DNA of 59,824 nucleotides from Escherichia coli (GCF_003334255.1 NZ_QOWU01000028.1); one strand, 5' to 3'; counted from the first letter of the stretch, positions 56,940 to 59,824 are shown. Notes: generated by a model from the letters alone, not told the origin. Translations and numbers: made by a program.

Positions 56940-57487
56940 TTTGCCTCCACCAGGACCGTCAGATTGCCTGTAATATCTGTCATGTCGGTTAGTTCCCCTT
57001 CATCCTTAAAAGCTGGAGCCATTGTCAGTGTGAGGCTAACGCTTTTACCGCTATCAATTACCACTTCTTGACCATTTTGCATAAACACCAGCCAATTATT
57101 GGGGGAAGTACTAATTGATGCTGTTCCTGTGCTGCCCGGATTGTCATTTTTGCCACTGGCTAACGCCAGGTCGAGATTGTTACTACCTGAAAATGCATCG
57201 CTGGCGATCAGATTTAATGAACCATTCGGGCCAAATCCAAATCCGTTGTTGGAAATATTAGCGGTATTCAACTGAACACGAATATGAGCGTCCTGATCGC
57301 ATTGCATTACCAGCGTGATTGTTCTGTCTGCTAATTGTGTTGTTTTACCCCGGTCAACTTGGCGCATGGCAGCACTTCGTTTGCCATAGTCGATATTTTG
57401 TATGCTACTGGAGATATTACACTCTGCCTGAGCGGCCATGGCGAAGTTCAGCAGCAGGCATCCTGTTATTATCCGTTTCATTGGCAC
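56936..57487 (-). CDS. yhcE: Fimbrial-like protein, intact ORF
   Basis: 183-aa ORF with signal peptide MKRIITGCLLLNFAMAAQA; overlaps yhcF start and yhcD stop. Confidence 0.75.
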   Translation of the reverse strand: MPMKRIITGCLLLNFAMAAQAECNISSSIQNIDYGKRSAAMRQVDRGKTTQLADRTITLVMQCDQDAHIRVQLNTANISNNGFGFGPNGSLNLIASDAFSGSNNLDLALASGKNDNPGSTGTASISTSPNNWLVFMQNGQEVVIDSGKSVSLTLTMAPAFKDEGELTDMTDITGNLTVLVEAK

Positions 57488-59824
57488 TCTCCTGTTGCTG
57501 TCTCATAGAACACATCTTTTGGTGCATCTTCTGGGAATGTAAGGTGAATACGGCATGATTGCTGCTCATCTTTTATATCTAGCACCATGTCCGGTTTGAT
57601 GTTATTGAGGAATACAACACCGTCATCCACTGATGTTGTCAGATAGTTGCCTTCACTATCTTCAATCGCAACGCCTCTGGGCAGTTTTTTGCCGTCGGAA
57701 AGTGTGATATTGAGTAATGCACGGCGTTGTGTTATCGCACTGAATCCGACTTTCCCTACTGCACCACGGCCTTGTTTGATCATTTTTGTGCCGTTACCGA
57801 TATCGACATTTTTTGGCAAGCTGGCGGTATCGATCTCAACTCCTGATGTTCGCCACGGCTGGATTGATGGAATGACGGCATTACCCCGAAAATCTGTCCA
57901 TACTGGGCCTGCCTGAGATGTAATTCTGACACCTGCAATATTGTTATCCATTTTTGCGATGGCGAAAGTGTCATTGATAGTCCACGGTGAAAAGGTCACT
58001 CCCTGATCATGTACGGCAATACCACCTGACATCGTACCGTTGTAAGTACGGCTATCACTGCCGCTTGCTCCTGCGGCAAGGCTGACTTGGGTGTAATGGA
58101 GATTGGAACTGATACTGCCGTTCAAGCTCGTTTCACGTTCGTCGTGATCTCGTTCAGCATTCACATAGTAGGACATCTCATCTGAGACGACTCCCATGAC
58201 ACCAGTACCATAGTGGGTTTTATGATCGTCATGGCGAGTATACAGTGTGGCGGTGTTTGATCTGCCAAATGGAATACTGATGTTGACGTAGAACAGATCA
58301 CCATCGTCTTCATTATTTTCTGAAGCACTAAGTTGATGCTGCCAGTTGACGGAAACCGTGGCGTGTTTGAACGCTTTGTTCCAGTTAATATTAAGGTTGC
58401 TTGAGTCATTGTCACCGTCGTAACTATATGTTTTATAGCCACTGATGTTGAAACCACCCAGAATGGAGTTAGACCAGTTTAAACCAAGCGCATAAGTGCT
58501 TTTAGTCGGATCGGTATAATCATCATCAATCGCTTCAGACAGTTCGCGATAATGGCGATCAGATCGAGTGAGGCTGGTTGTTAGCCCAAGTGAAAATGGG
58601 AGATTGTAGTTCGCGTCAAGACGATATTTCTGTCCTTGCAGTGAGTCTTTCGTATCCTGCGATGTACTAATTTGGCTGCTCACTGTTAAATCGGGCAGGG
58701 GAACCAGACTCGACCGGATTGATGCCGCCTGATAATTTTCTGCTACGATAACGCCGCCGTTCATTGCACTCCAGCGTGTCAGATTCCATCCGCTCGATGC
58801 ACTAATTACCCAAGGTGATTCGTCATAGTCATCGTCTACCCGCCCTATCGCGAAGCGATAACCCTGGAAGCTTTCTACATGCTGATTAAACAGGGTGGAG
58901 GGAACAATATAGTTGTGCGAACTACCGTCTGTTTCGACAACGGTGACATTAAGATCACTATTACCATTGCGAACAGGTACATCAGGGATAGTGAATGCGC
59001 CCGCAGGAACCAGAATGGAATGAATTAAAACTCCTTGTTGACGAATCTCGACACGAGCCTGAGAGGTGTTGGCTATACCAGTAACTTGCACACCACTGCC
59101 GCTGGTTTGCAATGCGTTGTCCGGTGCGATTTCGATACCGTAAATACTGGCTCCTTCCAACACGCTATTATTGAGGTTAACTTCACCTGCTCGCATGAGT
59201 GTTTTAAGATCTGTAAAGGTACGTTGAAGGTAGGTTGACGAGTTCTGGTTACTGAATGTGCCATTTGTTTGTGTAAGGAACTGATGGCTGCGTAACATCC
59301 AGTCATTAATATTAATCCCGCCTTCAAGTGCAGCCTGGGAGTAGTCCGAACTCCCATTAGAAAATTCTGCACGGCTGCTCATCAGAGAGTAGTTTAGCAG
59401 CGCAGCTGTTCCACCAGTTGCTGCGTTTGTGAGATCCAACCCTATGGGAATGATCGCCTGTGGTGAAACGATAATATCTAACGCTTCCTGGTTAGGTAAT
59501 GGTGTGATTGTGGTACCCGGGTAGGACAATATATAGTCGTAACAGCCATTTTTTTCTTCAGAAGGAATTTTTAAACCGGCTTGTTGCAGAAATGCCTGAT
59601 CAAGACAAATGTCGCCATTTTCATCAAAGCGCGTAGCAATGTTGCCTTTTTTTTCGCCATTTACTGATACTATCAGTGAATATTCACCTGGCAAAAAACG
59701 GGCTGAACGGGAAAAATAATGCGATATATTAGGATCTACACCTAGTGGGTAATGACTCCAACTTATTGATAGTGTTTTATGTTCAGATAATGCCCGATGA
59801 CTTTGTCATGCAGCTCCACCGATT
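57478..59824 (-). CDS. yhcD: Fimbrial usher protein; 5' end unresolved (continues past window edge or disrupted)
   Basis: 738-aa ORF from TTG at 59694 is clearly an usher (LPGEYSLIVSVNGE...); the same frame continues upstream for 42 codons to an in-frame TGA at 59806..59808; no signal peptide within the window. Confidence 0.8.

Follow-up and report, generated by a model that had tools for sequence, protein, structure and literature searches.

The window analysed here is a stretch of Escherichia coli DNA of 59,824 nucleotides (nt; GCF_003334255.1, NZ_QOWU01000028.1), whose right-hand end carries part of yhcD, the usher gene of the yhc operon, a beta-class chaperone-usher locus of E. coli phylogroup A (PMC5216030). 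The 3' 2,270 nt of yhcD lie on the minus strand at 57478..59747 and correspond to nt 113-2382 of the K-12 gene, from the second base of codon 38 to the stop. They are directly adjoined at 59748..59824 by 77 nt of the right end of the insertion sequence IS1, which runs off the window with its transposase genes on the minus strand, co-directional with yhcD. A preliminary description of this DNA had noted an in-frame TGA near the window end and proposed a nonsense mutation in the usher gene. We find instead that IS1 is inserted in yhcD, between nt 112 and 113 as seen from the window side and at the target CACTAGGTG (nt 113-121), and that the yhcD of the window is a disrupted gene and not a functional usher.

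The junction between IS1 and yhcD

The breakpoint was located with a 225-nt query across the window end, compared by BLAST with 5,426 complete E. coli genomes. Query positions 78-225 are yhcD sequence, 100% identical to K-12 and many other strains, and the remaining positions, 1-77, hit a multicopy element with the annotation IS1 transposase, which sets the breakpoint at 77/78. K-12 yhcD is 2,382 nt long, encodes 793 amino acids (aa) and starts at L001:3389, with the match beginning at 3501, that is, at nt 113. In a three-way alignment of the window, K-12 and the IS1 end, the switch from IS1 to yhcD falls exactly at 59748/59747. The 9 bp next to it, CACTAGGTG at 59739..59747 (minus strand), directly adjoin the IS1 inverted repeat and are presumed to be the right-hand copy of a target duplication.

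The 77 nt at 59748-59824 are 100% identical to the last 77 nt of the annotated 768-bp IS1A. This stretch recurs at 71,428 places in 4,961 of the complete genomes (median of 10 per genome, on chromosomes and plasmids), which is the multicopy, dispersed occurrence in the host species that marks IS1. Elements of the IS1A/IS1B type are 768 bp long, have 23-bp inverted repeats and usually duplicate 9 bp of target (sometimes 8). The inverted repeats of the family, GGTGATGCTGCCAACTTACTGAT and GGTAATGACTCCAACTTATTGAT, are imperfect copies of each other; the left one lies outside the window and the right one, GGTAATGACTCCAACTTATTGAT, is matched exactly at 59748..59770 (plus strand), which is its only exact occurrence in the window, against a chance expectation of 0. 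Of insA-insB' (DDE_Tnp_IS1, programmed frameshift), only the last 19 codons of insB fall within the window; together with the TAA stop they occupy 59763..59822 (minus strand; SVELHDKVIGHYLNIKHYQ, then the stop) and are identical to the C-terminus of the annotated IS1 transposase. InsB ends 16 nt inside the element and in a frame other than that of the usher, so no InsB-YhcD fusion protein is possible.

On the other side of the junction, YhcD residues 39-793 of the window are identical to those of K-12 at 755 of 755 positions, and the 20 residues before them are unrelated. Full-length K-12 YhcD has the domain architecture that an usher requires, with PapC_N (PF13954) at 31-159, Usher (PF00577) at 176-706 (E = 1e-150) and PapC_C (PF13953) at 715-777. 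The remnant in the window encodes most of PapC_N, together with Usher and PapC_C, and has neither a start codon nor a signal peptide. A functional usher needs an N-terminal Sec signal peptide and an intact open reading frame (ORF), and the window copy does not have them.

Reading frames at the window end

Much of what the preliminary description reported on the frames at the window end is reproduced here. Read on the reverse complement, the usher frame translates as IGGAA, the TGA stop at 59806..59808 (minus strand) and QSHRALSEHKTLSISWSHYPLGVDPNISHYFSRSARFLPGEY…, as described. The remaining two minus-strand frames close after 13 and 19 codons, within the approximately 20 codons given before. 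A scan of the window for ATG, GTG and TTG in the usher frame likewise returned TTG at 59692..59694 (minus strand) as the first possible start. It corresponds to YhcD codon 56, with no start codon upstream of it in this frame within the window, and would give a 738-aa product without a signal peptide. No Shine-Dalgarno sequence was found upstream of this TTG and it is therefore not a genuine start. The stated absence of a signal peptide also stands, given that the window contains neither YhcD codons 1-37 nor any copy of the first 42 nt of K-12 yhcD.

The reading of the codons between the TGA and the TTG needs more revision. There are 37 sense codons and not 42, a number reached only when LPGEY is counted in. 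They had been described as resembling an usher N-terminal domain, which is right for the last 17 (LGVDPNISHYFSRSARF), the only ones that are YhcD sequence, and wrong for the first 19 and one hybrid codon (QSHRALSEHKTLSISWSHYP), which come from a non-coding frame of IS1 and do not resemble YhcD. The TGA itself, by translation, alignment and its match to the IS1A end, is IS1 sequence (…GCTGCATGACAAAG…), 59 nt within the right end of the element and out of the insB frame. It is thus a product of IS1 read out of frame within its last 77 bases, not of a mutation in yhcD.

The shortened ORF is not diagnostic. The 738-aa ORF that starts at the TTG (window 57478-59694, minus strand) has a protein entry on 681 public contigs, and usher versions of 738, 683, 634 and 606 aa are all found in the public protein collection, on hundreds of contigs. 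Among the entries of the 738-aa version is the K-12 MG1655 record AIZ89776.1, in which yhcD is intact. Hence, this ORF alone is no sign of truncation, because the true ATG of yhcD is frequently overlooked by gene callers, which call shortened ushers in strains with an intact gene as well.

Probable structure of the insertion and its alternatives

We consider a simple IS1 insertion with a 9-bp duplication the most likely structure, at a probability of roughly 85%. IS1 would have transposed into CACTAGGTG, duplicating these 9 bp and parting codons 1-37 of yhcD from the rest. The parted codons, now beyond IS1, would encode the signal peptide, MLKKTLLAYTIGFAFSPPANA, together with residues 1-17 of the mature protein; as judged from its sequence, the YhcD N-terminus, MLKKTLLAYTIGFAFSPPANA followed by DG…, is predicted to be a typical Sec signal peptide. 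We infer that a full 768-bp IS1 is present, with the 5' 121 nt of yhcD and then yhcA directly behind it. The real start of yhcD would then most likely lie about 890 bp past the window edge, behind the remaining ~691 bp of the 768-bp IS1 and 121 nt of yhcD. The preliminary description had placed the start of an unbroken 793-aa gene 35 nt past the edge, which is arithmetically correct for the 2,382 nt of K-12 yhcD. It had also suggested a true start beyond the window; this is trivially so, and its position could not be reconstructed without recognising IS1.

The contig on the far side of such an insertion would have yhcD nt 1-121, with CACTAGGTG as the last 9 bp, and then the left end of IS1. 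The predicted junction is …CACTAGGTG joined to GGTGATGCTGCC or, written longer, GGGAAACATTAAAATCACTAGGTG followed by GGTGATGCTGCCAAC or by GGTGATGCTGCCAACTTACTGAT, and it would create a 41-aa ORF (MLKK…KSLGG, then a stop). Ten left-junction peptides, predicted for duplications of 0, 4-8, 9 and 10-12 bp, were looked up in the public protein collection. The 9-bp peptide (MLKK…KSLGG, 41 aa) is present there, and those for eight other lengths between 0 and 11 bp, including 8 and 10, are absent from it. The 12-bp peptide is also present and was rejected, as its DNA shows IS1 inserted separately, at a point 3 bp deeper in the gene. Contigs encoding the 41-aa ORF carry yhcD nt 1-121 ending in CACTAGGTG and then an IS1 end. 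In L008 (GCA_965136505.1, with six similar places) and L011 the orientation of IS1 is the one that the window requires, and the 1,390-bp flank of L008 is 100% identical to G1/2, genomes with a complete yhc operon. In total, the matching reciprocal junction is found in at least 7-8 public assemblies, none of them linked to the strain of the window, and it makes a simple insertion the most likely structure.

Two of these contigs have features of their own. L008 (CBCRYS010000177.1) is a contig of 1,628 nt with IS1 at both ends (1-120 and 1510-1628). The IS1 right end adjoins mid-gltF and the IS1 left end follows yhcD nt 121, so two direct-oriented copies flank a 1,390-bp gltF'-yhcA-yhcD' segment, an arrangement that is composite-transposon-like and deletion-prone. 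L009, a metagenome contig spanning a whole IS1, was tried as a one-molecule proof of the duplication and rejected, because its far flank is unrelated DNA and it represents a chimera or a rearrangement.

A point nonsense mutation in an otherwise collinear yhcD, as proposed before near the signal-peptide junction, is refuted and has practically no chance of being correct. The TGA is truly in frame with the usher ORF, but a nonsense pseudogene has collinear homology on both sides of its stop, and here yhcD homology ends 59 nt downstream of the TGA. Alignment with orthologues, named beforehand as a check, ends the homology at 59747 and leaves the TGA outside yhcD; upstream of that position there is no similarity to yhcD, 77 of 77 positions are identical to the IS1 end, and intact yhcD encodes at the corresponding positions the start of the signal peptide (MLKKT…) and not the sequence of the window. 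Also very improbable is an assembly artefact, in which the organism has an unbroken yhcD and a contig end was misjoined to an IS1 k-mer. In its favour, the repeat at the window end is cut off after exactly 77 nt, which we take as a common assembler k-mer length, and no complete genome contains the junction. However, a de Bruijn contig enters a repeat only with junction-spanning reads, the IS1 inverted repeat reaches its last base precisely at the junction, as transposition requires, and the reciprocal junction occurs independently in several public data sets.

The alternative that deserves most attention, although still unlikely, is an IS1-associated deletion or rearrangement, in which the 5' end of yhcD, and possibly yhcA and gltF, was deleted or moved and the truncation is permanent. 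Several observations weigh against a simple insertion and in favour of this alternative. The far side of IS1 is outside the window, so that only one flank is visible and a simple insertion is unproven for this strain; the window junction is found in 0 of the 5,426 complete genomes by BLAST, and the full structure has never been seen in one molecule. Deletions associated with IS1 or IS5 are found at the locus in other strains. Six complete genomes cover both halves of the query (hits H1-H6; L002, L003; for example NZ_CM129855.1 and NZ_CP126598.1), and in these IS1 lies elsewhere and replaces the region from the 3' part of gltF to the 5' part of yhcA; the deletions have two different end-points, and yhcD is intact but without its chaperone. 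In strain MSI001, an IS5-like element sits at yhcD nt ~119 and the remaining yhcD through yhcF is deleted. L009, the sole public contig crossing IS1 at the site, continues into DNA that is not yhcD, and the second, direct-oriented IS1 of L008, in gltF and 1,390 bp away, makes that region prone to recombinational deletion. Set against this are the exact reciprocal junctions in the public assemblies described above, with the 9-bp duplicate, the IS1 left end, the same orientation and a flank 100% identical to the nearest relatives of the window, and the window itself has no sign of a deletion.

From what is established for chaperone-usher systems, an usher that lacks its signal peptide and the start of the N-terminal chaperone-subunit docking domain would neither arrive nor function in the outer membrane. 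From this we infer that an exported usher would be impossible and that Yhc fibre assembly would be abolished in the strain. Expression of yhcE and yhcF would probably be reduced by IS1 polarity. In a promoter and terminator scan of 59400-59824, one weak promoter-like site was found, no more than in shuffled controls, and no terminator; this consensus scan gives no evidence of an outward hybrid promoter formed by IS1 and yhcD. The absence of the junction from all complete genomes and the 100% identity of the 24.7-kb flank to strains with an intact operon indicate a recent insertion, limited to a single strain or lineage.

Recurrent insertions, genomic setting and known systems

The same spot of yhcD is broken by other insertions in public data, which we collected from one cluster of proteins, N-terminal fragments of 33-50 aa, in which only breaks near the site are detectable. 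At nt 121, IS1A is inserted in forward orientation in L008 and L011 and in reverse in L006, L007 and L012, and IS1 variants are inserted forward in L010 and reverse in L009 (91% identical). Across the independent samples of L006-L012 (ERR9384664, ERZ28647265, GCA_965136505.1, ERZ27232886, SRR25710468, ERR3331262 and SRR18174191), the target CACTAGGTG therefore carries IS1 in either orientation and as three or more sequence variants, which implies several independent insertions at one site. Further insertions fall within 7 bp of this spot. One contig (L019) has IS1 in forward orientation at nt 124. IS5 occupies CTAG at nt 115-118 in ~24 contigs (L013-L015), ISEc33 (IS630 family) the TA of the same CTAG in ~21 contigs (L016-L018), and in the complete genome of MSI001 (L020, NZ_CP076645.1) an element of the ISKpn26 family, IS5-like, follows nt ~119, with the 3' part of yhcD, yhcE and yhcF deleted. 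The landings of IS5 and ISEc33 would be explained by the preference of IS5 and IS630-family elements for CTAG-like targets.

Whether nt 113-124 (…AAAATCACTAGGTGTAG…) form a genuine multi-element insertion hotspot is doubtful. Breaks of any kind in the 300 nt around the site are found in only 2 of the 1,135 complete genomes with the yhcA-yhcD region and are thus rare in absolute terms. A hotspot might reflect the local DNA, with a rare CTAG in an AT-rich stretch beside a GGTG that resembles the IS1 terminus, or it could reflect selection for loss of YhcD. One study reports that YhcD is an outer-membrane protein that binds complement C3b and that survival in serum is higher without it (PMC6658569). 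The reuse of a target of ~10 bp by three insertion sequence families is a small curiosity for studies of target choice.

Downstream of yhcD, yhcE is intact at 56936..57481 (minus strand), with its start overlapping the yhcD stop (ATGA); its K-12 copy is broken by IS5. The last gene of the operon, yhcF (DUF1120, a putative fimbrial subunit), lies at 56223..56939 (minus strand). The truncated yhcD, yhcE and yhcF of the window are 100% identical to G1/2; gltF (DUF1120) and the chaperone gene yhcA fall outside the window. Next to the junction, 24,748 nt match several E. coli genomes at 100% identity (for example G1/2, G6/7, G8 and B-1109), in which gltF-yhcA-yhcD-yhcE-yhcF is intact, and this indicates no other decay in the flank. 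The cryptic, decaying operon suggested by the preliminary description is supported in so far as the usher gene is inactivated, but the cause is a mobile element and not a nonsense mutation. Of the 5,426 complete genomes, only 1,135 have the yhcA-yhcD region, as would be expected if the beta-class yhc locus is, as reported, restricted to phylogroup A.

In pig and pork isolates (hits H39-H45, for example NZ_CP038857.1 and NZ_CP075462.1), the 24.7-kb flank (window 35000-59747) is 100% identical in 2-3 pieces. These pieces span 26.1-26.9 kb, that is, ~1.3-2.1 kb of extra DNA, possibly further insertion sequences.

The left end of the window (1-358) is the tail of an rRNA operon, with a 5'-truncated 5S rRNA from model position 13 (13-120), a tRNA-Thr (GGT) at 119-194 and a complete 5S rRNA at 234-349. 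We take it to be the equivalent of rrfD-thrV-rrfF in K-12. Given that both ends lie in repeats (5S rRNA on the left and IS1 on the right) and that the IS1 overhang is exactly 77 nt, the window appears to be a whole short-read de Bruijn contig, broken in repeats at both ends. This would explain why the sequence stops at 59824, inside IS1.

The proper annotation of yhcD in the window is an IS1-disrupted pseudogene, neither a 738-aa usher nor a nonsense mutant. Frame arguments near contig ends can mislead, as assemblers leave a few dozen bases of repeat elements there. The strain is expected to be unable to assemble Yhc fimbriae (beta-class), whose operon is already cryptic in K-12. Beyond annotation hygiene the significance is small, as this is an ordinary gene knockout at a contig end.

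In K-12, the yhc operon is regarded as cryptic, with yhcE disrupted by IS5 (Korea et al. 2010 and Nuccio & Baumler 2007, cited in PMC5216030), and our literature search for yhcD together with IS1 returned only this known IS5 insertion in yhcE. The window shares with K-12 the beta-class locus gltF-yhcADEF and its decay by an insertion sequence; unlike in K-12, yhcE is intact and yhcD is struck, by IS1 rather than IS5. Enterotoxigenic E. coli (ETEC) 401900 has a yhcD with a premature stop codon (PMC5216030). It is likewise a natural strain with an inactivated yhc usher gene, but its stop is described as lying inside yhcD, whereas the stop in the window belongs to IS1. As with other cases of insertional inactivation by IS1 in E. 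coli, the right inverted repeat is exact, the 3' end of insB is 100% identical to IS1A and the junction lies at the terminus of the element; in public assemblies, the reciprocal junction points to a 9-bp duplication. The insertion of the window differs from such cases in that only 77 nt of the element are visible and in its site, nt 113-121 of yhcD, which is occupied in 0 of the 5,426 complete genomes. It is, hence, a routine insertion sequence knockout of a dispensable operon, known in kind and new in its exact site when compared with complete genomes.
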